A stretch of DNA of 64,000 bases from Phycisphaerae bacterium. GTDB taxonomy: Bacteria > Planctomycetota > Phycisphaerae > SM23-33. The notes beneath the pieces were generated by a model, which ran no database searches, had not been told where the DNA came from, and was given only the letters and a program-made list of their open reading frames with translations. The stretch lies in assembly GCA_046541875.1 (NCBI GenBank), contig JBKHCL010000002.1, positions 3,811 to 67,810 of the forward strand, in the 5' to 3' direction. A program made the position numbers and the translations under genes. Shown piece by piece: positions 14,073 through 38,729 of this stretch (the first letter of the stretch is position 1; every line of letters begins with the position of its first letter).

Positions 14073-14075
14073 CCG

Positions 14076-22577: not shown

Positions 22578-22615
22578 GAGCCTTCCCGCCCCATGGGCCC
22601 GACAGGAGAAACACC

Positions 22616-24280
22616 ATGCCGCAGAACGTAGACCTCGCCAAACGCCGACGCATCATGCAGCGATCGATGAAGCTCGGCCATTGCATCTGCGATCCGAAAC
22701 GACCGTGTCCGTGCAATGTCTTCACACAGGATGGCTACTGCCCCTGCGCCGGGGAACGACCCGACACCGCGCCGGCCGACAACGTGAAGCTCACCGAGTT
22801 GGTCCACAATGCCGGCTGTGCGAGCAAAATCGCGCCGGCGGACCTGGAGACCGTGCTCAAACGCCTCCCACCGGTATCCGACCCGGCTGTGCTTTGCGGC
22901 CTGCCCGCCGGGGACGACGCCGGCGTCTATCGCCTGCCCGACGGGACCTGCCTGGTGCAGACCGTCGACGTGATGACGCCGGTGGTCGACGACGCCGAGA
23001 CGTTCGGGCGGATCTGCGCGGCCAATTGCCTCTCGGACATTTACGCGATGGGCGGAACGCCGCTGACCGCGCTGAGCATTCTGGCGTTCCCCTCCGAGAC
23101 GCAGGACGGCGAGCTGATGTACCGCATGATGAAGGGCGCGATGGACGTGCTGGGCGAGGCGGGGGTGGCCCTGATCGGCGGGCACAGCGTGAAAGACGAG
23201 GAAATCAAGCTCGGGTTCGCGATCACCGGCACGATCGACGCCGAGGCGGCTGTCTCGCACGGCAGCGCGAAGGTGGGCGATGTGCTCGTGCTCACCAAAC
23301 CGCTCGGGGCCGGCGTGCTGAACTTCTGCCGCCAGATCGGGCGGAATGCTCCGGGGCTGGCCGAGGCGGAGGCGTCGATGGCTACGCTGAACCGCGACGC
23401 GGCGGAGGCGATGAACGCGGTGGGCGTCTCGGCGGCGACGGACGTGACGGGCTTCGGGCTTTACGGGCACCTGATCAGCATGGCGCGTCATTCGGGGGTG
23501 ACCGCACAGGTCTGGGCCGATCGGCTGGGGGCGTTTCCCGGGGCGATCGAGGCTTTGGAGGACGACGTGGTCCCCGGGGCGATCGAGCGGAATCGTGAGT
23601 TCGTAGCCGACGATATCGCCATCGCCTCCGACGTCGCAGCCGGTGCGGGATTGCTGGGCTTCGACGCCCAGACCTCCGGCGGATTGCTGATGGCTGTGCC
23701 CGAGGCGAAACTGGCGGACCTGCGCGAGCAGTTGCAGCGGCGGAATACCCCGGCGATGGTCATCGGAAAGGTGGTGGCCGAGTCCGATGGCAGGATCGTC
23801 GTGACGACGGCGAAGGAGGCGGTCGAGTCGGCTGGGCTCAGGGACATCGTGGATACACCCGGAGGTGAGCAGGGCCGGAAGGCGAGTTGCGGCGGCGCCC
23901 AATCCGGCGAGAGTTCCTGCTGCCCGGGGAGCGAACCCGACGAGGCGAGCGGCGCGTGCTGCTCGGCCGGCAGGGAGGCGGGTACGGCCGGCGACTCGCT
24001 CAAGGCGTTCGGCGCGCTGATGCGATCGGCAGGGGCCGGCGGTACGATCGACGAGACGGCCAAGGAACTGATCACCTTCGCGCTGGTGCTGCTGAGCAAG
24101 TGCGAACCGTGCTTCGAGGCCCATTGGGCGAAGGCGGCGAACATGGGCATCTCCCGGGAGCAACTGGACGAAGCCGCCTGGTGCGCCATCGCCATGGGCG
24201 GGGCGCCGGTGCGGATGTTCTACGAGCAGATGAAATCCCGGGTCGACGCCGACCACGTGCCGGGCAGGGGATGCTGCTGA
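22616..24280 (+). CDS. selD: Selenide, water dikinase SelD fused to N-terminal Cys-rich segment and C-terminal AhpD-like domain
   Basis: SelD core with HNAGCASKI active-site loop. Cys codon TGT, not TGA. The N-terminal 50 aa carry HCICDPKRPCPCNV...YCPC. The C-terminal 150 aa have SCC...CC plus CEPCFEAHW, an AhpD/CMD-like CxxC helix. Confidence 0.85.
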   Translation: MPQNVDLAKRRRIMQRSMKLGHCICDPKRPCPCNVFTQDGYCPCAGERPDTAPADNVKLTELVHNAGCASKIAPADLETVLKRLPPVSDPAVLCGLPAGDDAGVYRLPDGTCLVQTVDVMTPVVDDAETFGRICAANCLSDIYAMGGTPLTALSILAFPSETQDGELMYRMMKGAMDVLGEAGVALIGGHSVKDEEIKLGFAITGTIDAEAAVSHGSAKVGDVLVLTKPLGAGVLNFCRQIGRNAPGLAEAEASMATLNRDAAEAMNAVGVSAATDVTGFGLYGHLISMARHSGVTAQVWADRLGAFPGAIEALEDDVVPGAIERNREFVADDIAIASDVAAGAGLLGFDAQTSGGLLMAVPEAKLADLREQLQRRNTPAMVIGKVVAESDGRIVVTTAKEAVESAGLRDIVDTPGGEQGRKASCGGAQSGESSCCPGSEPDEASGACCSAGREAGTAGDSLKAFGALMRSAGAGGTIDETAKELITFALVLLSKCEPCFEAHWAKAANMGISREQLDEAAWCAIAMGGAPVRMFYEQMKSRVDADHVPGRGCC

Positions 24281-24334
24281 GGCCCGTACCATCAGAATTG
24301 CCTGGCAGTTTTTCAAGCTTTCGCGAATAGAGGG

Positions 24335-24362
24335 TTGACTTCTGATCGCCGGGGGATAGAGT
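24335..24362 (+). promoter_or_regulatory. Putative sigma70-like promoter for tRNA-Leu (TTGACT-N16-TAGAGT)
   Basis: Read directly, about 40 nt upstream of the tRNA 5' end. A short hairpin (atctcgc..gcgagat) lies in the leader. Confidence 0.25.
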
Positions 24363-24400
24363 GGGGAATCTCGCTTCGCGGCGAGATCGCCGAACAACCC

Positions 24401-24484
24401 GCGGCCGTGGCGGAATTGGCAGACGCGCAGGCTTCAGGTGCCTGTTCCCTTCGGGGAGTGAAGGTTCGACTCCTTTCGGCCGCA
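24401..24484 (+). tRNA. tRNA-Leu (anticodon CAG)
   Basis: Cloverleaf read by eye. Acceptor GCGGCCG/CGGCCGC, D-arm GCGGAATTGGCAGACGC (near-identical to E. coli tRNA-Leu), anticodon stem CAGGC/GCCTG with loop TTCAGGT, long variable arm TCCC-TTCG-GGGA, T-loop TTCGACT. Confidence 0.85.
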
Positions 24485-24611
24485 ATGAGAACACCGCCGA
24501 CTCTCCCGGGTCGGCATTTTTGTGCGCATCGGGCAGTATCCGGGGGCGTTGCCTTCAGGGCGTCTCCGTGATATGCTTCGCCCGCACAGACTGTCCTAAA
24601 GGAGTGATCGC

Positions 24612-25064
24612 ATGTCCCCCATGGGCGAATCGCTGAAGCGTCAATTCGGCCAGGCGTTCGACGTGCTGGAGGCGGCGGTTCGATTGCTGGATGACTCGCA
24701 GTGGCGGCAGGGCGGGTCGCCCTACGACGGACCGGCCCGGGGGACGCTGCACGCACTGCAGGCAGCCGAGTACTACACGCATGGCCGGAGCGAGGTGTTT
24801 CGCTGGCAAGGCAAGGGCGTGTGGGAAATGGACAGCCACGAGTTGCCCGACCAGCAGGAAATGCTGGATTACCTCGCGGCAGTGCGATCGATCAACGACG
24901 AATGGATCGCTTCGCTCGACCGGGGACCTCTTGCTGTCGGCGGAGAACAGGCCGGACAGGCGCTGGACCGGGCCGTCTACGCCGTTCGCCATCTCCAACA
25001 CCACACCGGCGAGGTCTGCGCCTGGATGAAGCAGTTCGGCCATCCGCAGGAAACGTGGGTCTGA
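24612..25064 (+). CDS. DinB/YfiT-like (DinB_2 superfamily) protein
   Basis: 150 aa, His-containing four-helix-bundle-like pattern. Weak family assignment. Confidence 0.45.
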   Translation: MSPMGESLKRQFGQAFDVLEAAVRLLDDSQWRQGGSPYDGPARGTLHALQAAEYYTHGRSEVFRWQGKGVWEMDSHELPDQQEMLDYLAAVRSINDEWIASLDRGPLAVGGEQAGQALDRAVYAVRHLQHHTGEVCAWMKQFGHPQETWV

Positions 25065-25242
25065 GCGGTCCGGCAGGCGAAGCGTGCAGCATCTATAAGA
25101 TTCATTTATCGCATCGGCGGGGGGCTCTCGACGTTGGACCTCAAAAGGGGTAGTAAGATAAAGGCGATTCGGCTACACTGGGGGCTGTTGGTCGATAAGA
25201 ACTCCTTGTAAGCCGGAGCCACTGCCCTTGCATACCGATGTG

Positions 25243-26115
25243 ATGAAGACCTTCTGCGACCTCGTGGACGCCGGGAGTTTCTCCAAGGCCGCCGAGATGA
25301 ATTTCATTTCGCAGTCGGCGGTTTCGCAGCAGTTGGCGAAGCTGGAGCGCGAGCTGTCGGTGCAGTTGATATCGCGGGGCGGCGGGTTGGTCGCTCCCAC
25401 CGAGGCCGGCCGGGCGTTTTATGACGGCTGCAAGGACATCATCCGCCGCCACGAGCAGCTTCTGGGCGAGGTGCGGGCCGCTGCCGACGCCGTTCGCGGC
25501 GTGCTGCGGGTGGGCACGATCTATTCGGTGGGCTTCTACCTGCTGGACCCGTACGTGCGCGAGTTTCTCCAGGCCCACGCGGAGGTCAACCTGCACGTGG
25601 AGTACACCCGCTGGAACCGCATCAACGCAGCCATCGTCTCCGGCGAGATGGACCTGGGAATCGTCGCCTGCCCCGAGAAGCAGCGATCCATCGAGATCCT
25701 CCCGCTGACCAGCGAAGAGATGGTTGCGGTCTTCGCGCCGGGCCATCCGCTGGCAGGGCGAGACTGCATTGGCGTCGAAGAGCTCGAAGGCGAGACGGTG
25801 GTGGCCTTCGAGGCGGGCATCCCGACGCGCGTGTTTATCGACAAGCTCCTCAGGAAGCACGGCGTGACGGTGAACATCGAGATGGAGTTCGACAACATCG
25901 AGCTGCTCAAGCGGGCCCTGGAGGTCGGCTCGGGGGTGGGCATCCTGCCGGTCGGGAACATCCAGCGGGAGGCCGACCGGGGCGACCTGGCGTTCGCACG
26001 CATCGACGGCGATGAGTGGCGACGCCCGATCGCGATACTCCGGCGCCGCGGGAAGGCGGCCAGTCCCGCCGAGCGCATGTTTCTCTCGGTGCTGCGCGAA
26101 GGGCACGAGGCGTAG
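25243..26115 (+). CDS. LysR-family transcriptional regulator
   Basis: N-terminal HTH (FSKAAEMNFISQSAVSQQLAKLE) and C-terminal substrate-binding domain. ATG at Met6 of the track ORF. Confidence 0.88.
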   Translation: MKTFCDLVDAGSFSKAAEMNFISQSAVSQQLAKLERELSVQLISRGGGLVAPTEAGRAFYDGCKDIIRRHEQLLGEVRAAADAVRGVLRVGTIYSVGFYLLDPYVREFLQAHAEVNLHVEYTRWNRINAAIVSGEMDLGIVACPEKQRSIEILPLTSEEMVAVFAPGHPLAGRDCIGVEELEGETVVAFEAGIPTRVFIDKLLRKHGVTVNIEMEFDNIELLKRALEVGSGVGILPVGNIQREADRGDLAFARIDGDEWRRPIAILRRRGKAASPAERMFLSVLREGHEA

Positions 26116-26194
26116 GCGGGGGCGCATAGAAAACCGCGCGTCGAGGAAGGTATGCACCCGCTCGACGCGCGGCCGATTCCGTCTCCGGCGGGCG

Positions 26195-26356
26195 TCAGTC
26201 GACCGGCGAGAACTCGCTCTTGTCGGCGCCGCACTCGGGGCAGACCCAGTCGTCGGGAATGTCCTCGAAGGCGGTTCCGGGTTCCACGCCATTGTCGGGG
26301 TCGCCCACGGCCGGGTCGTACTCCCAGCCGCACAGATCGCAAACGTACTTCTTCAT
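26195..26356 (-). CDS. Rubredoxin (53 aa; absent from the ORF track because it is under 60 aa)
   Basis: Minus-strand translation [53 protein letters not shown], with canonical CxxCG...CPxCG rubredoxin motifs. Coordinates verified against flanking track ORFs. Confidence 0.85.
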
Positions 26357-26491
26357 GTTGGCACCTTTCTTTCGGTTGGAGTCAAAACGTCGTTGCTGCT
26401 GAATGTTGGTTACCGGGTCAGGCTGTAAAAGTCAACGCAGCCGTCGATCGTTGCACGCGTCAACACGGGCAGGATGCCCGGGCTGTGTCTC

Positions 26492-26998
26492 TCACGGCGT
26501 TTCCGGTGGTGTATCGGTGGTTTCTTCGGGCTGGATTCCCAGCAGCTCGACCAGATCGGCCGGCTCGATGCGGTATCGGCTGCCCCGGCCCTGGAAGAAG
26601 CCGTGCTCGCGCACCAGGTGCACCGAGAGAGGCGTGTATCGCTGAACGACCTCGCCGGTTTTGGGGTCGGTCAGCTCGACCTCGCCCTTACGGAAGACCT
26701 TGCCCCCCCAAGGGGACGGGATCTTTCCCATCGACTCGCGATAGGTCGCCACCAGCCCGCGCCCGCCGGCCGTCGTGACGGTCACGGGGGCGCCGAACGT
26801 GTTGACCGCCGCGCTGAGAATGCGTTCCATCTCGTCGGCGATCCGGTCTTTCGTGATACCGAGATGGTCCAGTTCGTGGGCGTCGTTCTCGATGATCTCG
26901 TGCAGTGTGCGGTGATCGTGTCCGAGAAAGCCCTCGCGGCAGAGAACGCCCGGGGCCATCCGTTTCATCAGTCGGTCTTCGTCGGGGAGTTTTTTCAT
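26492..26998 (-). CDS. Hypothetical conserved protein between nqrF and rubredoxin
   Basis: 168 aa, no TM. His/Glu-rich N-terminal half (HDHRTLHEIIENDAHELDH). No recognisable family. Confidence 0.5.
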   Translation of the reverse strand: MKKLPDEDRLMKRMAPGVLCREGFLGHDHRTLHEIIENDAHELDHLGITKDRIADEMERILSAAVNTFGAPVTVTTAGGRGLVATYRESMGKIPSPWGGKVFRKGEVELTDPKTGEVVQRYTPLSVHLVREHGFFQGRGSRYRIEPADLVELLGIQPEETTDTPPETP

Positions 26999-27013
26999 GC
27001 GGAGGCTCCGGGG

Positions 27014-28126
27014 CTAGGCGAACTTGTCGTAGAAGCGGCGGTCTTCGATGATGCCCTTGCCATCGAGCACTTCGGCTGCGGCGTCGATCATGCCCGGCGA
27101 GCCGCAGAGGTACGCCTCCATCTCGGCCCCGTCCTTCACGCGGCGGTCGAGCACATCGGTAATCAGCCCGGTCTCGCCGCTCCAGTCGTCCGGCGGGTCC
27201 TGGCAGGACAGCGCGGGCACGTACTCGAACCACTCCAGTTCGTCGGCCAGGGCGTAGAGTTCCTCGGTGAGGAACATGTCACGCGGGTTGACCGCGCCGA
27301 AGAAGTAGGTGCATTTCTTGCGGAGGTCGTGTTCCTTCATGTGGCGAATCATCGACCAGAACGGGGCCATACCCGATCCGCCGGCGATCCAGACCATTTC
27401 GCGATCGGTCTCCTGCAGGCGGAAATCGCCGTAGGGGCCCGAGAGGGTCACCTCGTCGCCCTCGGAGACGTGCTCGAACACCCACGTCGTGCAGATGCCC
27501 CCGGGCACGAGGCGGATCATCAGTTCGATGTAGCCGTTGTCCGATGGTTTGGACGAAATCGAGTACGCCCGGTAGACCGGCTCGGGGTTGTCCCCGTAGG
27601 CGGGGGCTTCGAGCTGCATGTATTGGCCGGCGACGAAGTCGATGGTCTCCGGCTCGATCAGCTTGATGCGCAGCTCCTTGATATCGTGCGTCAGGTCGCG
27701 GATCTGCTCGACCCGGCCGCGGAATTCCTTGATCGAGAACAGCTCCTCGGGGATCTCGATGGCCATGTCGTTGCGGACCTTGACCTGGCAGGAGATCCGG
27801 ATGTTGTTCTCTTTCTCGGTTTCGTCCAGGAGAGGGTCTTCGGTGGGTACGACCGGGCCGCCGCCGTCAAGAATCTTGCACTTGCAGTATGCGCAGGTCC
27901 CCCGGCCGCCACAGGCGGAGGGAATGAACAACCCCTCGCCCTTGAGCGATGCCAGCAGACTTTCGCCGCCCTCGACCTGCAGTTCCTTCTCGCCGTTGTT
28001 GATCGAAATCGTGCAGATCCCGTAGTTGACGAGATACTTCTCGGCCAGCAGCAACAGCGCCGCCAGCACGGTGGACAGTACGCAGGCCGTCAGGGCCGCC
28101 AGAAGTACGCCGGTTACCAGGTTCAT
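27014..28126 (-). CDS. nqrF: Na+-translocating NADH:quinone oxidoreductase subunit F-like (2Fe-2S ferredoxin/FAD/NADH)
   Basis: N-terminal TM, plant-type 2Fe-2S motif CGGRGTCAYCKC, RxYS FAD motif (YRAYSISS), NAD-binding GGSGMAPF. Confidence 0.88.
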   Translation of the reverse strand: MNLVTGVLLAALTACVLSTVLAALLLLAEKYLVNYGICTISINNGEKELQVEGGESLLASLKGEGLFIPSACGGRGTCAYCKCKILDGGGPVVPTEDPLLDETEKENNIRISCQVKVRNDMAIEIPEELFSIKEFRGRVEQIRDLTHDIKELRIKLIEPETIDFVAGQYMQLEAPAYGDNPEPVYRAYSISSKPSDNGYIELMIRLVPGGICTTWVFEHVSEGDEVTLSGPYGDFRLQETDREMVWIAGGSGMAPFWSMIRHMKEHDLRKKCTYFFGAVNPRDMFLTEELYALADELEWFEYVPALSCQDPPDDWSGETGLITDVLDRRVKDGAEMEAYLCGSPGMIDAAAEVLDGKGIIEDRRFYDKFA

Positions 28127-28139
28127 CGAGTCGCCTCGC

Positions 28140-28805
28140 TCACAGTTTGATCATTCCCTGGAAGACGGTGAACGCCATGGCCATGATGCCGGTGATAATC
28201 AGCGTAATCCCCGGGCCCTCCAGCGCGGCGGGAATCTTCGCCTTGCTCAGCCGTTGGCGAATGCCCGCCATGATGACGATCGCCATGAACCAGCCCAGTC
28301 CGGAACCGAGCCCGAAGACGAAGACCTCCGGCAGGCCGTACCCTTTGGAGAGCACGTCGTTGACCATGAACAGGCTGGCCCCGAGGATCGCGCAGTTGAC
28401 GGTGATCAGCGGCAGGAAGATGCCCAGCGAGTAGTACAGCGGTGTCGAAATCCGCTCGATGAGCATCTCCATCAGCTGCACGAACGCGGCGATGACCACG
28501 ATGAACAGGATCAGCTTGAGGCTCTCCGCCGGGACGCCATAGGGTTCGAGCGGCTGAAGCACATACACGTACAACAGGTAGTTCAGCACGCAGGTGCACG
28601 TCGTGACGAACAGCACCGCCAGCCCCATTCCCACCGACGCCTTGAGCTGTCGGCTGATCGAGAGGAACGGGCACATTCCCAGAAACCGCGTCAGCAGGAT
28701 GTTGTTGGTCAGCGAGGCGGAAACCAGGATGAGCACCATTCCCGCGGTGAAGCCCACATCGGGCGTGGCGCCCTGGGCCTGCATCTGGGCGAGCAGGGGG
28801 GTCAT
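28140..28805 (-). CDS. nqrE: NqrE/RnfA-family membrane subunit
   Basis: Six-TM NqrDE/RnfAE family with conserved Cys in TM segments. Operon position between nqrD and nqrF. Confidence 0.85.
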   Translation of the reverse strand: MTPLLAQMQAQGATPDVGFTAGMVLILVSASLTNNILLTRFLGMCPFLSISRQLKASVGMGLAVLFVTTCTCVLNYLLYVYVLQPLEPYGVPAESLKLILFIVVIAAFVQLMEMLIERISTPLYYSLGIFLPLITVNCAILGASLFMVNDVLSKGYGLPEVFVFGLGSGLGWFMAIVIMAGIRQRLSKAKIPAALEGPGITLIITGIMAMAFTVFQGMIKL

Positions 28806-29482
28806 GCGGCACCTCCTTCAGCGGCTGCTTCGCGTTTGAGGGAATACCACCGGGCCACCCAAACGGCGATCGCCAGCAGGAAAAACGCTCCGGGGGGCAT
28901 GACCATGATCGTCCAATGTCGCCACGCCGTCTCGTGCACGCCCGGCTGGTACGCCCGGAGGAAGTCGAAGGTGATCTGCCACGACGTGCCCTTCAGCAGC
29001 GTTCCGAACCCGAGGACCTCGCGGACGATCGCGATGCTCATGAGCACCAGGCTGTAGCCCAGCCCGGCCCCGAGCCCGTCGGTGAGGGCGGGGAGGGGTT
29101 TGTTCTTGTTGGCGAACGCTTCCAGCCGACCCAGGACGATGCAGTTGGTGATGATCAGCCCGACGTAGGCGGCGATGTCCTTGTGGGTATCGAAGAAGAA
29201 CACCCGGAAGACGATGTCCACCACGATGACGAAGACGGCGATGATGAGCACCTGCACCATGATGCGGACGCGGTTGGGCGTGAAGTTTCGCAGCAGGCTG
29301 ACGGTGAGCGAGGACATCGTCGTCGCCCAGATGAGCCCGACGCACATCAGCGCGGTGTTGAACACGAGGTTCGTCACCGCCAGGGCCGAGCAGATGCCCA
29401 GCACCTGCCGGAAGATGGGGTTCTCCGCCCAGAACTGGGTCTCCAGCGCCTCTCGGGCGGTGAGTGTATCCTGCGGGGGCAT
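28802..29482 (-). CDS. nqrD: NqrD/RnfE-family membrane subunit
   Basis: NqrDE/RnfAE family membrane protein. ATGA overlaps on both sides. Confidence 0.85.
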   Translation of the reverse strand: MPPQDTLTAREALETQFWAENPIFRQVLGICSALAVTNLVFNTALMCVGLIWATTMSSLTVSLLRNFTPNRVRIMVQVLIIAVFVIVVDIVFRVFFFDTHKDIAAYVGLIITNCIVLGRLEAFANKNKPLPALTDGLGAGLGYSLVLMSIAIVREVLGFGTLLKGTSWQITFDFLRAYQPGVHETAWRHWTIMVMPPGAFFLLAIAVWVARWYSLKREAAAEGGAA

Positions 29483-30246
29483 TACACGCCTCCTTCCACG
29501 TCAGGAGCGTTGGCGTCGGGCGACGATGCGCTCTTGAGCAGGCCTTTGGCCCGGGCGGCCCGGCGGAACTGCTCGATGCGGGTATTCACGAACGCCTCGA
29601 CGGCGGTGCTGGTTCCGGTGGCGCCGGTGATGGCGTCCACGTGCCTGCCGTAGGCCGATTCGCCTTCATCCGGGCTGGACTTGGTGATGTAGATGATCTG
29701 GTCGGCCTCGGTGGGCGGTGAGATATCCAACCCCTCGAACTGCTCGGCGAAGGTCTCCTCGGTGATGCGTCCGCCCAGCCCGGGCGTTTCCTGGTGGGCC
29801 AGGAACACCGCGCCCAGCGACTTGTTCATGTCCGGGGCGACTGCGAGGATCCCGTCGATCCGCGCCCAGAAGCCGATCCCCCAGATGGGCATCGCGTAGC
29901 CGATGAGCTTGCCGCCCGCGTCGGGGTCGGTGTCGTAGGCCTGGTACGTCTGCAGCCGGGGGTCGGTGGGGTGGTTGAAGTTCACGCCGGATTCCGGGTC
30001 GATCAGGTCTCCCTCGACCTTGCGAATGTGGGTGTTGTAGAGCTCCTCGATGCGGGCATCGGACGGTTCGGGCGTCTCGGCCAGTTCGAAAACGCTCACC
30101 AGCGCACTCATCCGCGCCAGTTGCTCGTTGCGTTTGACGATATGCTGCGTCGAGGCGTGCAGCGTCATGATGGCCGCGGTGAACAGCGCGGAAACGACGG
30201 CGGCGTAGAGGATGACGTAGGTGGGATTCTTGGTATTCAGTTTCAT
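29482..30246 (-). CDS. nqrC: NqrC (FMN-binding) subunit
   Basis: N-terminal TM. Covalent-FMN attachment motif ITGATGTS near the C-terminus. Confidence 0.85.
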   Translation of the reverse strand: MKLNTKNPTYVILYAAVVSALFTAAIMTLHASTQHIVKRNEQLARMSALVSVFELAETPEPSDARIEELYNTHIRKVEGDLIDPESGVNFNHPTDPRLQTYQAYDTDPDAGGKLIGYAMPIWGIGFWARIDGILAVAPDMNKSLGAVFLAHQETPGLGGRITEETFAEQFEGLDISPPTEADQIIYITKSSPDEGESAYGRHVDAITGATGTSTAVEAFVNTRIEQFRRAARAKGLLKSASSPDANAPDVEGGV

Positions 30247-31379
30247 TGGTCACCCTTCCCGGCGGCGGCCCGGGCTTTTCGCCGGTCCTCCCAGGAGCCC
30301 ACGCCCAGTTCGATCAGCGGGGCGAGCATGTTGCCCAGCAGGATGCTGAACGTCGCGGCGGCGATGAACGGGCCCTTCCAGCGGAGGAAGACCAGCAGGA
30401 AGCCGATGACGAACGCGTAGATCAGCCGGGCCGAGTTCTTTCGCGGCGCGGAGACCGGTTCGGTCACCATGAAGACCATCGCGTACAGCGTGGTCCCGCT
30501 GAGCACCTGCCACGCCAGCGGGGGCACCTGTCCGACGTCGGTGTACCCCAGTCCCTGGCGGAACAGCAAACTGGCGGCCGTCACGCCGATGAGCCCGCCG
30601 AGCATGAGTCGCCAACTGGCGGTTTTCGTCACCAGCAGGTAAATCGCACACAGCAGGATGATCACGCCGCACCCCTCTCCGATACTGCCGGCCGCGAGGA
30701 TCTCTTCGCTGCCGCTGGGCGTCTGGAAGATCCCGCCGATGGTCCCCCACGCCATGTCCCACAGCGTGGCGCCCTGGCCGTTGTTGACGATGGCTTCGCT
30801 GCCGTACTTGGTGCCCACGAACATGGGGCTGGCCTGGGTGACCGCGTCGGCGACGGTCTCGCCGCCGGCCTGGAGATACTCGGGCAACTGCTTGAGCGAC
30901 TTGAACGACCAGTGTGCGAACCCGCCGGGAAAGCCCTGGAACGCGGGCACGAACCGCCCGGTGAGGTCCTGCGGGAAGCAGATGTACACGAACGCGCGTC
31001 CGACGATGGCGGGGTTTACCCAGTTTCGCCCGAACCCGCCGTAGACTTCCTTGCCGAACAGGACCGCGACAGCCGCCCCCACACCTGCCACCCACAGCGG
31101 TGTGGTGGCCGGCAGCGAGAGCGAATACAGCAGAATCGTCACGAACAGGGCGGTGGACACGGGTTGACCGCGATGTTGCGCGGAGACGTACTCCACCGCG
31201 AAGCCCACCAGCAGGCAGAACGCCACGATCGCCGCCACGACCCACCCGAAGAAGTAGATCCCGGTGAGCATCACGGGGATCAGGGCGTAGATCATGCGCA
31301 GCATCTGGGGCTGCTTCATGAGAAGCTTTTTGGGTTTCTTCTTTTTGGCGGCGGATCCGCCGGATGCTTGTGCGCTCAT
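30243..31379 (-). CDS. nqrB: NqrB/RnfD-family membrane subunit
   Basis: Polytopic protein with GQGATLW FMN-attachment-like motif and C-terminal VTEPVSAP...LFANL-like region resembling NqrB. Confidence 0.82.
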   Translation of the reverse strand: MSAQASGGSAAKKKKPKKLLMKQPQMLRMIYALIPVMLTGIYFFGWVVAAIVAFCLLVGFAVEYVSAQHRGQPVSTALFVTILLYSLSLPATTPLWVAGVGAAVAVLFGKEVYGGFGRNWVNPAIVGRAFVYICFPQDLTGRFVPAFQGFPGGFAHWSFKSLKQLPEYLQAGGETVADAVTQASPMFVGTKYGSEAIVNNGQGATLWDMAWGTIGGIFQTPSGSEEILAAGSIGEGCGVIILLCAIYLLVTKTASWRLMLGGLIGVTAASLLFRQGLGYTDVGQVPPLAWQVLSGTTLYAMVFMVTEPVSAPRKNSARLIYAFVIGFLLVFLRWKGPFIAAATFSILLGNMLAPLIELGVGSWEDRRKARAAAGKGDQ

Positions 31380-31476
31380 GCGGTCTCGTTTGTCCCAAGG
31401 CGTGTCGTTGCAGTGCGTCCATCAGCCATCAAGGCGGGCATCCCCTCGCCCGTGTGGATCCGTGGCGGACGGGCCG

Positions 31477-32694
31477 TTACTTCACTTCGGCGAGTTGGGC
31501 GTGCAATCTTTCGCCGATTGTCTTTCCCAGCTCCCGGCAGGAGGCCAATTCTTCGTTGGTGGGCACATATCGGCAGCGGACCGGGTCGGCCACCACGTCC
31601 ACGTCCATCTCTTCCAGCAGGGCGGTGAGGAGCTTGGGCGCTTCGCCGCTCCAGCCGAACGACCCGAAAGCGGCGCCGATGAGGTTCTTCGGCTTGAGCC
31701 CTTTGAGATAGGTCATGCAGTCGGCCAGCGTGGGGAAGATGTTGTTGTTCAATGTGGGCGAGCCAACGATCAGCGCGCCGGCTTCGAGAACCTCGGTCGC
31801 CACGTCGCTTCGGTGTGATCCGTTGAGGGGCATCAGGCGAACGGCGATGTCCTTCTCGCCCAGCCCCTCTGCCACCAGGCGGGCCATCTTCGCGGTGCTC
31901 TGCCACATCGTGTCGTAGACGATGACGGCCTTGTCGGTCTTCTCCTGGGCACTCCAGCGGGCGTAGCTGTCCAGGACGTAATCGATGTCCGAGGCGTTGC
32001 GGTAGATCGGGCCATGGTCGGGAGCGACGATCTCGATCTGTTCGCGCAGGGGCCCGAGCTTGTCCAACGCCTTGGAAATGAACGGCGCCAGGTGCATCAG
32101 GATGTTCGCGTAGTACTTGGTCAACTCGTACTGCAGCACGGACGATTCGATCTGGTCGGCGAACCGCTCATTGCCGGCCAGGTGCATCCCGAAGGCGTCC
32201 TGGCTGAACAGGAGCTTGTCCTCCTTCAGGAAGCTGACCATGCTGTCGGGCCAGTGGCACATGCGGGTTTCGTAGAACGCCAGGTGCACGCCGCCCAGGT
32301 CGATCTCCTGCCCGTCTTCGACCACGGTGACGTCCTCGATGATGTGATGCTCCGAGAGCGCGCGGGCGCCCTGCCTCGAGGCGTAAACCGTCGAGACGCC
32401 CAACTCCCCAGCCAGTTCGCCCACCAGTCCGCTGTGGTCCATCTCGGAGTGGTTGGATACAATCACATCGATTTCGCCGGGATCGGCGACCGAGGCGATG
32501 CGCTCGAGCATCTCGCTCTTGAAGGGTGCCTTGACCGTGTCGATCAGTGTGAGCTTGTCCGCTTTGACGAGAAACGCGTTGTACGTGCTGCCACGGCTGG
32601 TCGCATAGCCGTGGAAGTCCCGCAATGCCCAGTCGATCGCGCCGACCCACCAGACGTGCTCACTGACCTTTATCGCTTTGTACGTCTCAGCCAT
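31477..32694 (-). CDS. Flavodiiron protein (class A FDP; O2/NO reductase, ROO/FprA-like)
   Basis: Metallo-beta-lactamase-like diiron motif HSEMDH (FDP-type HxExDH). C-terminal flavodoxin domain VIVYDTMWQSTAKMA. 405 aa. Confidence 0.88.
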   Translation of the reverse strand: MAETYKAIKVSEHVWWVGAIDWALRDFHGYATSRGSTYNAFLVKADKLTLIDTVKAPFKSEMLERIASVADPGEIDVIVSNHSEMDHSGLVGELAGELGVSTVYASRQGARALSEHHIIEDVTVVEDGQEIDLGGVHLAFYETRMCHWPDSMVSFLKEDKLLFSQDAFGMHLAGNERFADQIESSVLQYELTKYYANILMHLAPFISKALDKLGPLREQIEIVAPDHGPIYRNASDIDYVLDSYARWSAQEKTDKAVIVYDTMWQSTAKMARLVAEGLGEKDIAVRLMPLNGSHRSDVATEVLEAGALIVGSPTLNNNIFPTLADCMTYLKGLKPKNLIGAAFGSFGWSGEAPKLLTALLEEMDVDVVADPVRCRYVPTNEELASCRELGKTIGERLHAQLAEVK

Positions 32695-32751: not shown

Positions 32752-33270
32752 TCACTTCTCTTCATCGCGCAACTGCATCAGGAGGTTCTTGAGGCTCGTT
32801 GCGTGCCCCATCTCCTGGTGGATGATGTCGTCGATTTTCGCTCGCTGGTCGGCGTTGGGCACGTATTCCTTGAGCCCGACGTAGAAGAGGATCGAGTCGC
32901 TCTCCATCTCGACGGCCCTGGCGATCACGTCGGTCAGGCGCTCCTGGCCGGTCCACGTTTTGGCGGGTCCGCCGGCCGGGTCGAACAGGCGATCGCTCGC
33001 CAGCATTTCCAGGTAGCTGCGGACGGACTCGTCGGGCTGGGCCGCCTGGTCGCCCTCGGCGGCTGCGCTTTGGCGGGCCAGCCAGTTCTCCTTCATCGCG
33101 GAGAACACCTGGAGATGATCCTCTTCCATCACCGCCAGCTGGCGGAGAAACTGCTCAGCCTTGGGGTCGCTCGCCAACTCCGCTGAGCGACGATAGAACT
33201 CCACACCATTGCTCTCCACCTGGCAGGCCAGGTCCAGCAGGTCCGCAGCGCTCATCTCATTGACAGCCAT
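32752..33270 (-). CDS. Ferritin-like diiron-carboxylate protein (rubrerythrin/ferritin-like superfamily)
   Basis: Two E..EEDH/E..H helices (VMEEDHLQVF, HQEMGH). 172 aa. Confidence 0.55.
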   Translation of the reverse strand: MAVNEMSAADLLDLACQVESNGVEFYRRSAELASDPKAEQFLRQLAVMEEDHLQVFSAMKENWLARQSAAAEGDQAAQPDESVRSYLEMLASDRLFDPAGGPAKTWTGQERLTDVIARAVEMESDSILFYVGLKEYVPNADQRAKIDDIIHQEMGHATSLKNLLMQLRDEEK

Positions 33271-33276: not shown

Positions 33277-33798
33277 TTACTCTCCTTCGCCTTCAGCCGG
33301 CGGCGGGGTGAAGCTTCGCTGTCCCAGCTCACGATCGATCATGAACAGCGCGCCGGGCGCTTCCTTGCTGAGCTTGAGCTGCTGGACGATCTGGTCCACG
33401 GAGGCCTCTTCCTCGACCTGTTCGTCGGTGAACCACTGCAACATCGACTCGCAGGCGTAGTCCTTCTGCTCGCGGGCGAGGGTCACCAGGTCGTCGATCC
33501 GCTGGCTGATGTACTGCTCGTGCTTGTAGGCAGCCTCGAAGGCGGCCAGCGGCGAGTCCCACTCGGTCTGAGGCGCCTCGATGGCGGTGAGCTTCACGGT
33601 CCCACCACGCTCGTTGATGTGGTGGAAGAACTTCATCGCGTGGACCATCTCCTCCTGGGCCTGGGCACGCATCCACGCAGCCGCCCCGGAGAGATTCATC
33701 GTCTCAAACCACGCCGACATGCTCCAGTACAGGTAGGCCGAGAACGTCTCAGCGTTGATCTGCTCATTGAATGCCTTCTCAATCGGCTCCTTCATCAT
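33277..33798 (-). CDS. Non-heme ferritin
   Basis: MMKEPIEKAFNEQINAETFSAYLYWSMSAW... is a canonical bacterial ferritin N-terminus with ferroxidase Glu/His residues. The start is chosen at the first ATG after an AAAGGGA RBS. Confidence 0.85.
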   Translation of the reverse strand: MMKEPIEKAFNEQINAETFSAYLYWSMSAWFETMNLSGAAAWMRAQAQEEMVHAMKFFHHINERGGTVKLTAIEAPQTEWDSPLAAFEAAYKHEQYISQRIDDLVTLAREQKDYACESMLQWFTDEQVEEEASVDQIVQQLKLSKEAPGALFMIDRELGQRSFTPPPAEGEGE

Positions 33799-33826: not shown

Positions 33827-34204
33827 TCAGCTTTTCCACAGGCCATGCACGTTGCACAGCTCCCGGGCGGACAGCTCGCCGTCCACAGCCGGGAACGTAG
33901 CAGCCGGCTCGTCGTCCGGCGTCAGACGCTTGTACATTACAACGTCGCCGGCCGTCAGTTCGATCCACTGGATGAAGTGCTTGTCCTCCATCGGATGGGC
34001 GGTTTCCTTGCCCACGCGGACCTCCACCCCCTCGGCCGTTCGCTCGATGTACGGAACGTGCTTCTCGTTGGAGGCGTCCTCGGTCTTCGCTTCCAGCAGC
34101 GTCATCGGTTGGCCGCAACAGACCGGCTCGCCGGCGCCGCCTTCGATCGCCTCGACGACGATCCCGCAGACTTCACACTTGTAGACTTCCTTCGGTTTGG
34201 TCAT
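33827..34204 (-). CDS. dfx: Desulfoferrodoxin (2Fe superoxide reductase)
   Basis: N-terminal desulforedoxin CEVCG...CCG and C-terminal SOR domain (HVPYIE...H...C..H). 125 aa, start at Met88 of the track ORF. Confidence 0.88.
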   Translation of the reverse strand: MTKPKEVYKCEVCGIVVEAIEGGAGEPVCCGQPMTLLEAKTEDASNEKHVPYIERTAEGVEVRVGKETAHPMEDKHFIQWIELTAGDVVMYKRLTPDDEPAATFPAVDGELSARELCNVHGLWKS

Positions 34205-34230: not shown

Positions 34231-34755
34231 TCAGCTCTGCTCGGTTGCCTGCCTGACGGCCGCCAGGGCAGCGTCGTAGTTCGGCTCGTCGGTCATCTCT
34301 TCCACCAACTCCTTGTAGACGACCCTGCCGCCGGTGTCCACCACCAGCACCGCACGCGCAAGAAGTCGCAACTCCTTGATCAACAACCCGTACTTCGTGG
34401 CGAAGTCCGCGTCGCGATGGTCCGAGAGCGTCACGATCCTGTCGGCGTCCTGCCGGCCGCACCATCGCGCCTGGGCAAAGGGCAGGTCCATCGAGAGGGT
34501 GAGAATCACGACGTTGTCGCTCAACTCCCCGGCGGCGTCATTGAACTTTTTGGTCTGCGTGGAGCAGACGCTCGTATCCAGCGAGGGCACCGATGAGAGG
34601 ACAATCACCTTGCCCGACCAGTCGGACAGAGACTTCTCCGAGAGATCGTTGGCAATCGCCGTGAAGTCCACCGCCTGATCGCCCACGCTGACGTCCTGCC
34701 CGATCAGTGTCAGCGGGTCGCCCTTGAATGTAATTGCGCCTTCCTGTTCAGCCAT
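34231..34755 (-). CDS. tpx: Thiol peroxidase Tpx (atypical 2-Cys peroxiredoxin)
   Basis: Near-collinear with E. coli Tpx, including SVPSLDTSVC peroxidatic Cys and DLPFAQARWC resolving Cys. Start at Met27 of the track ORF. Confidence 0.88.
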   Translation of the reverse strand: MAEQEGAITFKGDPLTLIGQDVSVGDQAVDFTAIANDLSEKSLSDWSGKVIVLSSVPSLDTSVCSTQTKKFNDAAGELSDNVVILTLSMDLPFAQARWCGRQDADRIVTLSDHRDADFATKYGLLIKELRLLARAVLVVDTGGRVVYKELVEEMTDEPNYDAALAAVRQATEQS

Positions 34756-34874: not shown

Positions 34875-35426
34875 TCAGGCGGCGAAAGCGATGTACTTCG
34901 CGCCGTCGGCGCTGCAGATGGGACACTTGTCCGGGGCGTCGCCTTCCAGCGTGTGGCCGCAAACCGGGCAAATCTGTACCGTCCCCAGCGCCAGGTCTTC
35001 GCCGTTGTCGACGGCCGTCTTGGCGTCGTGGAACATCTTCGCGTGAATCTTCTCGGCCGAGATCGCGTAATGCATGCTGCGCTGGGCGCCGCTTTCGTCC
35101 TGCATCTCCGCCACCGCCAGATAGGCCGGGTACATCTCATTGATCTCGAATTCCTCGCCGCCGATGGCGCCGGAGAGGTTCTCGGAGGTGCTCGCCAGCC
35201 CGAACCCCGCCATCGAGGTCACCGGGTGGTCGCCCCCGACATCTTTCATCGCGCGGAAATGCCCCGTCGCGTGGGCCTGCTCGGCCCGGGAAATCGCCCG
35301 GAACAACCGGGCGACGTTCGGAAATCCGTCCTTCTCGGCCTTGTCGCCCCAGATCATGTAGCGCATATGGGCCTGGGATTCGCCCCCAAAAGCACTGCGA
35401 AGGTTCTCAGCGGTCATGTCATGCAT
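34875..35426 (-). CDS. rbr: Rubrerythrin
   Basis: Diiron four-helix bundle (E..H pairs) plus C-terminal rubredoxin-like CPVCG...CPIC. Alternative start at Met4 (35417). Confidence 0.88.
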   Translation of the reverse strand: MHDMTAENLRSAFGGESQAHMRYMIWGDKAEKDGFPNVARLFRAISRAEQAHATGHFRAMKDVGGDHPVTSMAGFGLASTSENLSGAIGGEEFEINEMYPAYLAVAEMQDESGAQRSMHYAISAEKIHAKMFHDAKTAVDNGEDLALGTVQICPVCGHTLEGDAPDKCPICSADGAKYIAFAA

Positions 35427-35516: not shown

Positions 35517-35948
35517 CTATGCCGTCTCGTCGGCCTTGCGGTCATCGAGGCAGGACGGGCAAACCCCGACGTACTCGATGCGATAGCCCTGTACATCATA
35601 CCCACCGGCATCTTCCAGCAGATCGACGGCGGCGGGAATTTCCCGGACCTCGACGTCGTCCACCCGGCCACACTGCTCACAACGGATGTGCACGTGCGGA
35701 TACAGGTCGGCGTCGTACCGCCGCTGGGGACCACCCTCGATCCGCTTGATCGCACCGCACTCGGCGAGCACTTCCAGGTTGCGATACACCGTCCCGAGGC
35801 TGATGCGAGGCAGCGTCCGCCGAACCGCCCGGTACACATCGTCGGCGGTGGGGTGGGCGTCGGTCGCCTGGAGCTCCGAGAGAATCAGCCGACGCTGACG
35901 CGTCATCCGCCGACCCTGACCTCGAAACTCGTTCTCTTTGTCGCTCAT
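35517..35948 (-). CDS. perR: Fur-family peroxide-responsive repressor (PerR-like)
   Basis: Fur-family HTH, regulatory H..H.H site and structural zinc site CEQCG...CPSC. Leads the redox-stress gene cluster. Confidence 0.75.
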   Translation of the reverse strand: MSDKENEFRGQGRRMTRQRRLILSELQATDAHPTADDVYRAVRRTLPRISLGTVYRNLEVLAECGAIKRIEGGPQRRYDADLYPHVHIRCEQCGRVDDVEVREIPAAVDLLEDAGGYDVQGYRIEYVGVCPSCLDDRKADETA

Positions 35949-36123: not shown

Positions 36124-36669
36124 CTATCCGCTGTCCGAAATGTCGCCGGGGGTTGCCTCGCCCGCTTCGCTCAGCAGCGCGCGATAACTCTCGGCGGGCT
36201 TGGCCCCGACGATCCAGCGTTCCGGTTGGCCGTTGCTGAACAGCACGACGGTCGGGGTGTACTTCACGCCGTACTCCATCGCCAGGTTCGGCCGCGCTGC
36301 GACATCCACCTTCACGATGCGAGCCCGACCGGCATATTCGTCGGCCAACGCCTCCAACGTCGGCGCCAGCCGGGCGCAGGGCGGGCAGCCGTTCTTGTAG
36401 AAATCCACCAGGACGGGCACGTCGGCATCGAGCACGTCCGAGCGGAACTGCTCCGGGGAAGTGATCTGTGCGACGTTCGGGCCGTAACCGCCGGTAAGCA
36501 GGGGCAGGATCTGGGCCCCGACGCCTCCCAGCAGGGCCCCCACCAAGGCGGCACGCACGGGCCAGCCGCGAGGCCGGGCCTTCCCACCGCTCTGACGGGC
36601 GCGCGTCAGATACGCGAACAAACCGCCGATTACCGCCCCCGCGATCATGCCCAGCAACAGCACACCCAT
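36124..36669 (-). CDS. Membrane-anchored thioredoxin
   Basis: N-terminal TM helix and thioredoxin fold with CPPC active site (DFYKNGCPPCARL). Confidence 0.8.
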   Translation of the reverse strand: MGVLLLGMIAGAVIGGLFAYLTRARQSGGKARPRGWPVRAALVGALLGGVGAQILPLLTGGYGPNVAQITSPEQFRSDVLDADVPVLVDFYKNGCPPCARLAPTLEALADEYAGRARIVKVDVAARPNLAMEYGVKYTPTVVLFSNGQPERWIVGAKPAESYRALLSEAGEATPGDISDSG

Positions 36670-36922: not shown

Positions 36923-38233
36923 TTACTCACCGGCCGGCTGAGTAGTGACTACTTTGGGGACCTTCGGGACGTGCACACGCTGCCTTTCTTCGTCATTGAG
37001 AGTCACCGCCACAAGCTCTGAGTCCTTCCGCAGCCACCAAGTCGCCTTACCGTCTTTGATCAGGCAGACGCCATCGTCCAATATACCCCCGAACCGTTCA
37101 TATTCAAAAGGAACCACCGTTCTACACTCTCCATTCAACACACCCCATCGGTCGCCTTTCCGCGCTGCGTACAGATCACCACAGGCGAGGAACACCCTGT
37201 TGTATTCACGGGGGATCACCCAATTCCCTTCTCTGTCAATGACGCCATAGAGATCGTCCCGCATGACGCCGGCCACTCCACCCTCAAAGTGATTGGCCAT
37301 TCTGAACAGATCATTCGTAATCCGTGATCCATCTGTACGAATATACGTCCAGTAGGCAACGCCATTTTCCAGCAACGCCGCCCGCGCCCGCTCTTCTGAA
37401 AATGGGCTGGCGACCATGTACCGGGGTTCTATCCTCGTTGTCCCATTTGCATCAACATAGCCCCACTTGTTTCCGATCTTCATGTTGATTAACCCGCTTC
37501 GCGAAATGCGCTCATACTCTTCATCATGTGCGTCATCAATCGGGAATCTGGGCTTCACCTTCCAACGACCTTCACCGTCAATGATACCCCACTTATCCCC
37601 AGCCTGAACCACGGCAACCCCCTCGGACATCGCACAGGCCCCGTCGTACTTCGGTTCGATGACCCAATTGCCCTCAACGTCAATAACCCCCCACTTGCCA
37701 TTGTAGCTAACAGCAACATACCTGCCATCCCAAATACGAACATCATCGTACTGCGGACGGCGCACCCAACGGCCATGGTAGTCTGTCAGCCCCCATTTCC
37801 TGTCTTTCAGCACAAGAATAGCATTGCCATCTAATCCAGACCCAATCAGGTTTGTGAACACCGGAGGAAGCACGTATGCCCCATTCCTGTCAATCACAGC
37901 GCCAGGCCCGAATTCGGCAACGCTCACAATAGCAACACCACATTTGAAAGACGACGCAAGGGCATATCGTGGCTCGATGGCCCAAGTGCCGTCCATGTGA
38001 ATATACCCATACAGTAGACCCCTCAAAGGATACTTCGCGGACGGATCCACTACTAACGGGTAGGGCAGGAGTCTCTCATCAGTCTTGCGGCCTTCATGCT
38101 TTGCGGCATCGCTGTCCGGTCGACTATCGGAGCAACCTGTCAGCAATAGCGCAACCATGTACACGCCCATACACCAAAGCCGCGTAACAGTTACAGATGA
38201 GGCCAACTGTGGCGTTTTTGCCTGTTGTATCAT
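36923..38233 (-). CDS. WG-repeat (KWG-like) lipoprotein
   Basis: Lipobox LLLTGCSDS. At least eight tandem repeats with a GxWG core (KWGLTD, KWGVID, KWGIID, KWGYVD, RWGVLN...). GGAG RBS upstream; start at Met78 of the track ORF. Lower GC than the surroundings. Confidence 0.65.
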   Translation of the reverse strand: MIQQAKTPQLASSVTVTRLWCMGVYMVALLLTGCSDSRPDSDAAKHEGRKTDERLLPYPLVVDPSAKYPLRGLLYGYIHMDGTWAIEPRYALASSFKCGVAIVSVAEFGPGAVIDRNGAYVLPPVFTNLIGSGLDGNAILVLKDRKWGLTDYHGRWVRRPQYDDVRIWDGRYVAVSYNGKWGVIDVEGNWVIEPKYDGACAMSEGVAVVQAGDKWGIIDGEGRWKVKPRFPIDDAHDEEYERISRSGLINMKIGNKWGYVDANGTTRIEPRYMVASPFSEERARAALLENGVAYWTYIRTDGSRITNDLFRMANHFEGGVAGVMRDDLYGVIDREGNWVIPREYNRVFLACGDLYAARKGDRWGVLNGECRTVVPFEYERFGGILDDGVCLIKDGKATWWLRKDSELVAVTLNDEERQRVHVPKVPKVVTTQPAGE

Positions 38234-38453
38234 TTCGGCTCCTTTTTTCGCAGACGTTATCGGGGGACACCATACGGGTGTTCCACGTTGCAGTCCTGCT
38301 TGCCGCCGCCATGCTCCGAGACAATCTGCCCTGGAACCCACAAGACGCCTGAATGTCAAGACACTCGCTACGAACTGGAGGAATAATTCGTCTACCAGTG
38401 CCCTGGATTCGCCATGATCTGTCCGACACAGGGAGAAGCCACGACACGAGTCT

Positions 38454-38729
38454 TCATAGAGCAAGGCAGTCGCATGCTCTCGCTACCAGTGGAATTACGC
38501 CACAGATGGCCAAGCCAATCAGGATACACTTAAGCCATGGCCCCACGGACCGCCCAAAGGCAATCGCCAGCACGACGCCTGCGATCCACGCGACAGATGC
38601 ACACGCGAACACCCCGGTCCTGGCCTGAGGAACATATGTGGCCCACGCCATGCCGGCACCTGTTATGAGGCACACAACCGACAGCTCAATGGGTACTCTG
38701 CGGAGTGTTACTCGTGTGTCCGGGGTCAA
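38454..38729 (-). CDS. Small two-TM hypothetical membrane protein
   Basis: 91 aa with two hydrophobic helices. Same strand as and just upstream of the WG-repeat gene. Weak. Confidence 0.3.
   Translation of the reverse strand: MTPDTRVTLRRVPIELSVVCLITGAGMAWATYVPQARTGVFACASVAWIAGVVLAIAFGRSVGPWLKCILIGLAICGVIPLVARACDCLAL

Follow-up and report, generated by a model that had tools for sequence, protein, structure and literature searches.

An NqrA-less nqrBCDEF cluster with a conserved sixth gene beside rubredoxin in a Phycisphaerae bacterium: a candidate NADH:rubredoxin oxidoreductase

Introduction

Two branches of an ancient family of ion pumps driven by redox reactions, NQR and RNF, have been characterised, and here we describe a related gene cluster encoding homologues of the NQR subunits B to F followed by a small protein, designated X (the whole hereafter named BCDEF-X), together with a rubredoxin, in a stretch of 64,000 nucleotides from a Phycisphaerae bacterium (assembly GCA_046541875.1, contig JBKHCL010000002.1, positions 3,811 to 67,810), hereafter called the window. 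Soluble chains leading from an NADH:rubredoxin oxidoreductase (NROR) through rubredoxin to a flavodiiron protein (FDP/ROO) are known from Desulfovibrio gigas and Clostridium acetobutylicum. In canonical NQR, NqrA is devoid of cofactors and serves as an electrostatic anchor for NqrF (PMC9325719, PMC12174285), while in the Vibrio cholerae enzyme residues Phe34-Leu54 of NqrB intertwine with NqrA and the N-terminal segment of NqrB forms the pocket for the inhibitors korormicin and aurachin (PMC9325719). A 2025 review describes electrons as passed directly to ubiquinone and places quinone reduction in the membrane (PMC12174285), and in Prevotella a sodium-motive force is generated by an NQR that uses menaquinone (PMC10739449).

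NqrBCDEF complexes without NqrA are already known. For those of Thermotoga (Pseudothermotoga) thermarum and lettingae the other reactant "is unknown" (PMC4148951), for that of C. ultunense an acceptor more negative than quinone has been suggested (PMC5924567), and Salinispira pacifica, in which neither quinones, nor cytochromes, nor an NROR were found, holds a five-gene Nqr-like complex along with rubredoxins, rubrerythrin and superoxide reductase (PMC4511686). Meheust et al. (2021) reported NQR/RNF-like flavinylated systems built as NqrB-NqrF-domain fusions with one half-path, mainly in Actinobacteria and the Candidate Phyla Radiation, and did not separate NqrA-less clusters because NQR was defined there by NqrF alone (PMC8238504). 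The BCDEF-X branch is not discussed in an evolutionary study of 2014 (PMC4014512) or in the 2025 review (PMC12174285), and our literature search yielded no paper in which X is described or Nqr is connected with rubredoxin, X being the key new element here.

Results

Gene layout of the locus

The locus consists of the following features, sizes being given in amino acids (aa):

31477-32694, minus strand: flavodiiron protein (FDP), 405 aa (Pfam ODP/Lactamase_B and Flavodoxin_1)
30243-31379, minus strand: B-like, NqrB/RnfD-like membrane subunit (Pfam PF03116 NQR2_RnfD_RnfE)
29482-30246, minus strand: C-like, NqrC/RnfG-like, with one transmembrane helix and a domain binding flavin mononucleotide, FMN (Pfam FMN_bind)
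28802-29482, minus strand: D-like, NqrD/RnfE-like (Pfam Rnf-Nqr; 156 bits to 7xk3_D)
28140-28805, minus strand: E-like, NqrE/RnfA-like (Pfam Rnf-Nqr; 163 bits to 7xk3_E)
27014-28126, minus strand: F-like, NqrF-like NADH-oxidising subunit (Pfam Fer2, FAD_binding_6 and NAD_binding_1)
26492-26998, minus strand: protein X, 168 aa, soluble, of no known family, sixth conserved gene of the BCDEF-X family
26195-26356, minus strand: rubredoxin, 53 aa (Pfam Rubredoxin, 90 bits; NF045768, 102 bits, cutoff 90)
26128-26173, minus strand: terminator-like hairpin and U-tract, just 3' of the rubredoxin stop codon

The order FDP, 97-bp gap, B-C-D-E-F, 168-aa protein and rubredoxin, as read from the letters alone in the original prediction for this DNA, agrees base for base with the map of open reading frames (ORFs), and each of the gene identities proposed there is confirmed by Pfam and NCBIfam. 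Overlaps of 4, 1 and 4 bp join B to C, C to D and D to E, respectively, and gaps of 13, 15 and 135 bp separate E from F, F from X and X from rubredoxin. The hairpin, spotted by eye and folded afterwards, comprises a 13-bp GC-rich stem followed by UUUUCU (72-nt region, -36.6 kcal/mol, z = -3.0), and the spacer between X and rubredoxin shows no significant folding (z = 0.3). With a terminator-like hairpin after it and none before it, rubredoxin appears to be the final gene of the unit. A scan of the window for promoters revealed no sigma-70-like sites, and terminator-like sites occurred at chance level.

The FDP shows an HSEMDH motif and a class-A-type architecture (metallo-beta-lactamase-like plus flavodoxin) without a rubredoxin domain, so that it would need an external rubredoxin donor; its best NCBIfam model is the flavorubredoxin NF008887 (norV equivalog), at 373 bits and thus below the cutoff of 635. 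The closest relatives are found in metagenome-assembled genomes (MAGs) of Planctomycetota/Phycisphaerae, and the entire oxidative-stress island to which the locus belongs is present in locus L005 at 88-100% protein identity. The spacer between X and rubredoxin spans ~386 bp in L005 (10504-10890), the nearest relative, versus 135 bp in the window (26357-26491).

Cofactor sites of subunits B to F

Nqr models score best for all five subunits, yet every one of them falls below its NCBIfam equivalog cutoff (score/cutoff of B 182/414, C 87.5/144, D 223/235, E 200/248 and F 278/295, the last for TIGR01941). The D-like subunit reaches 156 bits to 7xk3_D versus 107 to RnfE, and the F-like subunit, whose hydrophobic residues 1-19 form an N-terminal transmembrane helix, reaches 226 bits to 8a1t_F.

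The ligands of the redox centres are conserved throughout the family. The FMN site of B reads DAVTQAS, with Ser184 aligned to V. cholerae NqrB Thr236 and Thr or Ser in 51/51 B members. That of C reads DAITGAT, and its Thr210, the counterpart of NqrC Thr225 by motif and not by alignment to NqrC, is kept in 53 of the 54 members (Thr or Ser in 54/54). Cysteines C31 and C114 of D align with NqrD C29 and C112 (conserved in 59/60 and 60/60 members), as C45 and C138 of E do with NqrE C26 and C120 (63/63 in both cases), and the four cysteines of the 2Fe-2S site of F are present in 71/71 members. The roles given below to NqrB, NqrD and NqrE residues at the riboflavin site and along the ion path follow in part PMC9325719. 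Among the riboflavin-site residues of NqrB, T162, N200 and N203 are kept and D346 is replaced by Glu, and among the acidic residues of the ion path NqrD D133 (D135 here) and NqrE E95 are kept, with NqrB D397 replaced by Glu. With the D/E and the B half-paths both retained, the acceptor at the B end would be expected in the cytoplasm or in the membrane.

Absence of NqrA and shortening of the B-like subunit

When V. cholerae NqrA, checked to be 100% identical to PDB 7xk3_A, was used as tblastn probe, neither the window nor any of 80 related loci gave a match better than E=1.2, in line with the original prediction that the window lacks nqrA; in the D-seeded metagenome sample described below, the same probe picked up NqrA (24-57% identity) in each of the 12 canonical clusters. 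The B-like subunit is itself shortened: residue 131 of NqrB corresponds to residue 50 here, the alignment to the NCBIfam model begins at model position 114, ~80 N-terminal NqrB residues are absent, and the remaining N-terminal length matches that of RnfD. On these alignments the B-like subunit is predicted to be unable to bind NqrA as NqrB does, and the canonical quinone/NqrA site to be structurally lost, the missing B segment being a stronger argument for this predicted loss than the absence of NqrA. One premise of the original prediction has to be corrected in this regard, as NqrA, referred to there as the quinone-site subunit, is described as a cofactor-free anchor for NqrF and the inhibitor pocket is located in the N-terminus of NqrB (PMC9325719, PMC12174285).

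A family in which X and NqrA exclude each other

An X-seeded genome scan yielded 76 loci of diverse phyla. Enough upstream DNA was available for 55 of them, and in 49 of those 55 B-C-D-E-F-X occur in this order, the phyla covered being Planctomycetota, Fibrobacterota, Lentisphaerota, Kiritimatiellota, Thermodesulfobacteriota, Thermotogota, WOR-3, Bacillota and Spirochaetales. An independent metagenome scan was seeded with the D subunit, and clusters with both ends visible were counted as follows:

16 clusters: X present, no NqrA
12 clusters: NqrA present, no X (canonical), with F only 35-40% identical
5 clusters: neither NqrA nor X, from low-GC organisms
0 clusters: both NqrA and X

NqrA and X are thus mutually exclusive in the D-seeded sample (Fisher p = 2e-5), and the window, with X directly after F and no NqrA, fits the same pattern as 16 of the 21 NqrA-less clusters. 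The 168-aa protein, called unknown in the original prediction, indeed matches no family, and it nevertheless constitutes a conserved, family-defining sixth gene. The same NqrA-less order recurs in dozens of contigs, and a window-edge or assembly artefact, the refuting circumstance named in that prediction, was rejected on these grounds. As judged from gene content and conservation, BCDEF-X is a distinct and widespread NqrA-less predicted member of the NQR/RNF redox-pump superfamily. It is carried by a Pseudothermotoga MAG (L058) and by cultured Mesotoga (L083), the latter making experiments feasible.

Some further features of the surveyed loci were recorded. The five clusters with neither NqrA nor X (L104, L106, L126, L131 and L136) lie on low-GC, Firmicutes-like contigs and may be of the C. 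ultunense type. A second, more distant Rnf/Nqr-type cluster (L046, 6283-9421; 24-38% identity to B-E of the window) is located in a Desulfovibrionales MAG ~2.7 kb downstream of its BCDEF-X genes, so that both systems coexist there. A DUF2400-like protein (TIGR02757-type), Pfam-confirmed only in L003, is encoded upstream of the cluster in L003, L023, L032, L035, L049, L055 and L063 and downstream in L011 and L069, spanning Fibrobacterota, Planctomycetota and Spirochaetales.

Features of protein X

X matches no Pfam or NCBIfam family, and its homologues, of ~150-170 aa, are annotated as "hypothetical" everywhere; a profile search retrieved 1,882 cluster representatives (50% identity, E<=1e-3). 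Its signature is an invariant HGF(Y/F)QGRGxxYR(I/L)EP loop. The structure is predicted confidently (predicted local distance difference test, pLDDT, of 91) and has no fold relative in the PDB, so that the model possibly represents a new fold. X is also found fused to enzymes: in L081 (463-1395, P0190) F is followed by X fused to a rubrerythrin-like protein, of the same kind as the RbrL encoded in the window (see below), and in L082 (2080-3081, P0165) D-E-F are followed by X fused to a nitroreductase.

A fusion of X to pterin-4a-carbinolamine dehydratase (P0361) comes from precomputed annotation only, and P0187, a candidate fusion of X to rubredoxin, was rejected and treated as an adjacency, its rubredoxin part being frameshifted on a low-quality contig. 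Tandem X repeats occur in long proteins (P0117, 885 aa; P0138, 2506 aa; P0232, 945 aa; P0237, 385 aa) that show no other Pfam domain and whose neighbourhoods (loci L165 and L166) are made up of unannotated genes; the genomic contexts of the multi-X proteins P0117 and P0261 were uninformative. Such repeats indicate that X belongs to a broader, uncurated domain family.

Rubredoxin as the commonest neighbour

Flanking ORFs of the X-seeded loci were clustered into families and the loci per family counted. Rubredoxin is the commonest (18 loci), followed by FDP (10), rubrerythrin-like proteins (9), DUF2400 (9), Tpx (7), desulfoferrodoxin (6), ferritin (6) and PerR (5), and no NqrA-, RnfC- or ApbE-like neighbour, and likewise no ferredoxin or flavodoxin, recurs among these families. 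Where both flanks are visible, rubredoxin lies within 1.5 kb in 15 of the 44 loci and some oxidative-stress gene within 3 kb in 18 of them. Eighteen rubredoxin copies lie within 2 kb versus one farther out, making them ~38-fold denser per kb (binomial p = 1.7e-8), and adjacency by chance was rejected on this distance distribution.

Loci with this linkage are spread over at least four clades of the F+X tree and differ in arrangement, rubredoxin being directly after X (often at 3-100 bp), upstream with Tpx, or divergent; further loci with such neighbours come from the D-seeded sample (L094, L095, L101, L118 and L120, rubredoxin being recorded for the last four), in which none of the 12 canonical nqrABCDEF clusters has rubredoxin or oxidative-stress genes nearby (0/12). 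The two fusions of X in L081 and L082, both directly after F, point in the same direction as the rubredoxin link. The association is strong, and not a proof. Regarding the synteny proposed for checking in the original prediction, the BCDEF-X order is conserved and rubredoxin is the commonest neighbour in several phyla, whereas adjacency of FDP is much less conserved than that of rubredoxin.

The oxidative-stress island and the rest of the window

Six stress genes lie upstream of FDP on the same strand, among them the rubrerythrin and the desulfoferrodoxin that the original prediction had placed in the island and that Pfam matches confirm:

35517-35948, minus strand: Fur/PerR-family regulator, head of the island (Pfam FUR, 93 bits)
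34875-35426, minus strand: rubrerythrin with a C-terminal rubredoxin-like domain (Pfam Rubrerythrin and RUBY_RBDX)
34231-34755, minus strand: Tpx-type thiol peroxidase, start codon approximate (Pfam Redoxin and AhpC-TSA)
33827-34204, minus strand: desulfoferrodoxin, a superoxide reductase (Pfam Desulfoferrod_N and Desulfoferrodox)
33277-33798, minus strand: ferritin (Pfam Ferritin, 145 bits)
32752-33270, minus strand: RbrL, rubrerythrin-like diiron protein without a rubredoxin domain of its own (Pfam Rubrerythrin, 44 bits)

PerR-like genes recur close to related BCDEF-X clusters. The sole NAD(P)H-binding module of the island is the FNR-like F, and the pyridine-nucleotide-disulfide oxidoreductase fold of soluble NROR was not found in the island.

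Just upstream of the PerR-like gene lies a gene for a membrane-anchored thioredoxin-domain protein (36124-36669), with one for a WG-repeat protein beyond it (36923-38464). On the other side the island adjoins a selenium-utilisation module (20343-26115), for which no tRNA-Sec was found within the window and whose stretch contains the following features:

~20643-22577: SelB
~22613-24280: SelD selenophosphate synthetase fused to a CMD/AhpD-like domain
24401-24484: tRNA-Leu(CAG)
24612-25064: DinB-like protein
25228-26115: LysR regulator (best NCBIfam model of the selenium-metabolism-associated type, 149.9 bits, below the cutoff of 250)

Farther away, a run of small genes with prepilin-type N-termini (G-F-T-L/F-I-E motifs; 13584-16912) suggests type II secretion or pseudopilin genes.

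Discussion

Proposed route of electrons

From the gene content, family conservation, cofactor ligands and rubredoxin association observed, we infer an acceptor, ion pumping and a role for X in the following manner. NADH would be oxidised at F, by its flavin adenine dinucleotide (FAD) and then its 2Fe-2S centre, and electrons would cross the membrane via the 2Fe-2S centre of D/E to the FMN of C, from where the FMN and riboflavin of B would bring them back to the cytoplasmic side; NqrA is absent there, and the quinone/inhibitor pocket of the NqrB N-terminus is predicted to be missing. The most likely acceptor at that point would be the putatively co-transcribed rubredoxin, which would then reduce the adjacent FDP, the rubrerythrin and rubrerythrin-like proteins and desulfoferrodoxin, the island thereby making up a self-contained chain from NADH to O2, NO, H2O2 and superoxide, probably under PerR-type control. 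X would serve as an F-associated anchor or as a dock for the acceptor.

That the NqrA-less BCDEF-X complex passes NADH electrons to rubredoxin and its detoxifying enzymes is, in our estimation, an evenly balanced proposition. The original prediction of an Nqr-type complex re-targeted from quinone to rubredoxin hence survives in part, since the NqrA-less family is real and associated with rubredoxin, while its argument from NqrA and its linkage to FDP need correcting. Coupling to Na+ or H+ export is plausible, because the acidic residues of the ion path are conserved and the span of potential from NADH to rubredoxin is similar to that from NADH to menaquinone. A more ambitious formulation can be put forward only tentatively, namely that BCDEF-X might be an ion-pumping NADH:rubredoxin oxidoreductase, a quinone- and cytochrome-free respiratory entry by which strict anaerobes would save energy as rubredoxin-dependent enzymes reduce O2, NO, H2O2 and superoxide, with X replacing NqrA in anchoring F and/or docking the protein acceptor, and might be the missing rubredoxin reductase of anaerobes where no NROR is found.

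Several observations weigh against rubredoxin as the acceptor at the B end. Rubredoxin is missing from the surroundings of about two thirds of the BCDEF-X loci (for example in Fibrobacterota, in Thermotogota, cultured Mesotoga among them, and in many Planctomycetota), the loci lack phylogenetic independence, so that the p-values make the support look stronger than it is, the five NqrA-less clusters without X depart from the pattern, and the alignment of X shows neither a conserved Cys/His cluster nor a recognisable cofactor site. Considering that NqrA is cofactor-free and that quinone reduction is placed in the membrane, loss of NqrA alone would also be compatible with quinone reduction. In addition, X tracks F more tightly than the membrane subunits, and pairs of F and X without B, C, D and E, in which F lacks the transmembrane helix, are found in Fibrobacterota, Stahlbacteria and Verrucomicrobiota (L035, 8768-10438; L049, 2340-3909; L054, 3570-5206; L074, ~4147-5627), so that electrons might leave from F and not from B.

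Alternative acceptors

Considered rather unlikely, but the first to be weighed, is a minimal NADH:quinone (menaquinone) oxidoreductase able to dispense with NqrA and placed in the island for co-regulation of NADH re-oxidation or respiratory protection, rubredoxin being reduced otherwise. Planctomycetes generally make menaquinone, the riboflavin-site residues of B are conserved, and most loci of the family have no adjacent rubredoxin, all of which would suit such an enzyme; against it, rubredoxin shows a strong and specific enrichment next to clusters without NqrA and none was seen next to the canonical ones, and BCDEF-X clusters occur in Thermotogota, which to our knowledge lack respiratory quinones. 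A cofactor-free NqrA and electrons said to reach ubiquinone directly in the membrane favour quinone reduction (PMC12174285), and against it stand the absence here of the NqrB segment known to build the inhibitor/quinone pocket (PMC9325719) and the fact that the five-gene Nqr-like complex of Salinispira resides in an organism reported as quinone-free (PMC4511686).

The tight pairing of F with X also suggests, as a quite unlikely possibility, that these two proteins form the true unit, a soluble-type NADH:acceptor reductase acting on rubredoxin or on fused or neighbouring enzymes, where X docks the acceptor at the 2Fe-2S centre of F and B, C, D and E have another purpose, such as anchoring, modulation driven by the gradient or a second outlet to the periplasmic FMN. 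In nearly all loci X comes after F, X is fused to acceptor-like enzymes, and an FDP is encoded 1.4 kb upstream of the soluble pair in L054. Upstream, L035 and L049 have the same neighbours, DUF2400 and a protein of 551 aa, as the full clusters of related Fibrobacterota, implying that B-E were lost secondarily from pairs that retained F and X. On the other side, all the membrane subunits are kept in 49 of the 55 loci with every cofactor ligand intact, which argues that the transmembrane path is used, and direct exit from F would short-circuit the pump. The same data allow a view of X that fits the rubredoxin route as well: X may be an F-associated accessory protein that takes over the F-anchoring or acceptor-docking role of NqrA, and since X tracks F, and NqrA anchors NqrF electrostatically in canonical NQR (PMC9325719), the anchoring role is attractive, though unproven.

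Finally, operation in the RNF-like reverse sense, with an ion gradient driving NADH electrons to a carrier of low potential, for example ferredoxin or flavodoxin, or export to a periplasmic acceptor via the FMN of C, is very unlikely in spite of the homology to the reversible RNF, the coexistence with a second Rnf-like cluster in L046 and the one-way outward flow proposed for partial NQR/RNF-like systems (PMC8238504), given that RnfB- and RnfC-type 4Fe-4S modules are missing, both half-paths are kept, which implies return to the cytoplasm, and neither ferredoxin nor flavodoxin recurs as neighbour.

Implications of rubredoxin reduction by BCDEF-X

If BCDEF-X does reduce rubredoxin, it would stand beside NQR and RNF as a third and widespread branch with another exit partner, answering the question, open since 2014, of what NqrA-less NqrBCDEF complexes reduce, and it would explain rubredoxin reduction in anaerobes without a recognisable NROR. 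If it also pumps ions, detoxification of O2 and peroxide in "strict" anaerobes would yield energy and not only cost reducing power. X itself represents a newly defined, uncurated protein domain.

Comparison with known systems

With Na+-NQR (NqrABCDEF; V. cholerae, PDB 7XK3/8A1T) the BCDEF-X locus shares homologous B-F in the same order, best scores to Nqr models, the covalent-FMN sites, the D/E 2Fe-2S cysteines, the cofactor domains of NqrF and the conserved riboflavin-site and ion-path residues. It differs in the absence of NqrA and of ~80 N-terminal residues of B, in the extra protein X, in subunits below the NCBIfam equivalog cutoffs, in an F that is only 35-40% identical to canonical NqrF in the metagenome sample, and in a neighbourhood of rubredoxin and oxidative-stress genes. 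The published NqrA-less nqrBCDEF clusters (PMC4148951, PMC5924567, PMC4511686) have the same gene set and equally lack NqrA, while the papers list five genes and mention neither X nor a rubredoxin link; those of C. ultunense and Salinispira are compared here by published description. The systems of Meheust et al. are partial NQR/RNF derivatives as well, but are fusion proteins (PMC8238504).

RNF (RnfABCDGE; ferredoxin:NAD+ oxidoreductase) resembles BCDEF-X in its D/G/E/A-type membrane core, in the RnfD-like N-terminal length of B and in its anaerobic hosts. On the contrary, RnfB and RnfC are absent from BCDEF-X, no Fer4-type domain exists in B, C, D, E, F or X, NADH would enter via an NqrF-type subunit, and Rnf models, all below cutoff, and Rnf subunits in the PDB score lower than the Nqr ones. 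The NROR chains of D. gigas and C. acetobutylicum share the overall reaction proposed here, from NADH to rubredoxin and on to FDP, rubrerythrin or superoxide reductase; these NRORs are soluble FAD enzymes of the pyridine-nucleotide-disulfide fold, whereas the window encodes an FNR-like NqrF within a predicted membrane complex that could conserve energy.

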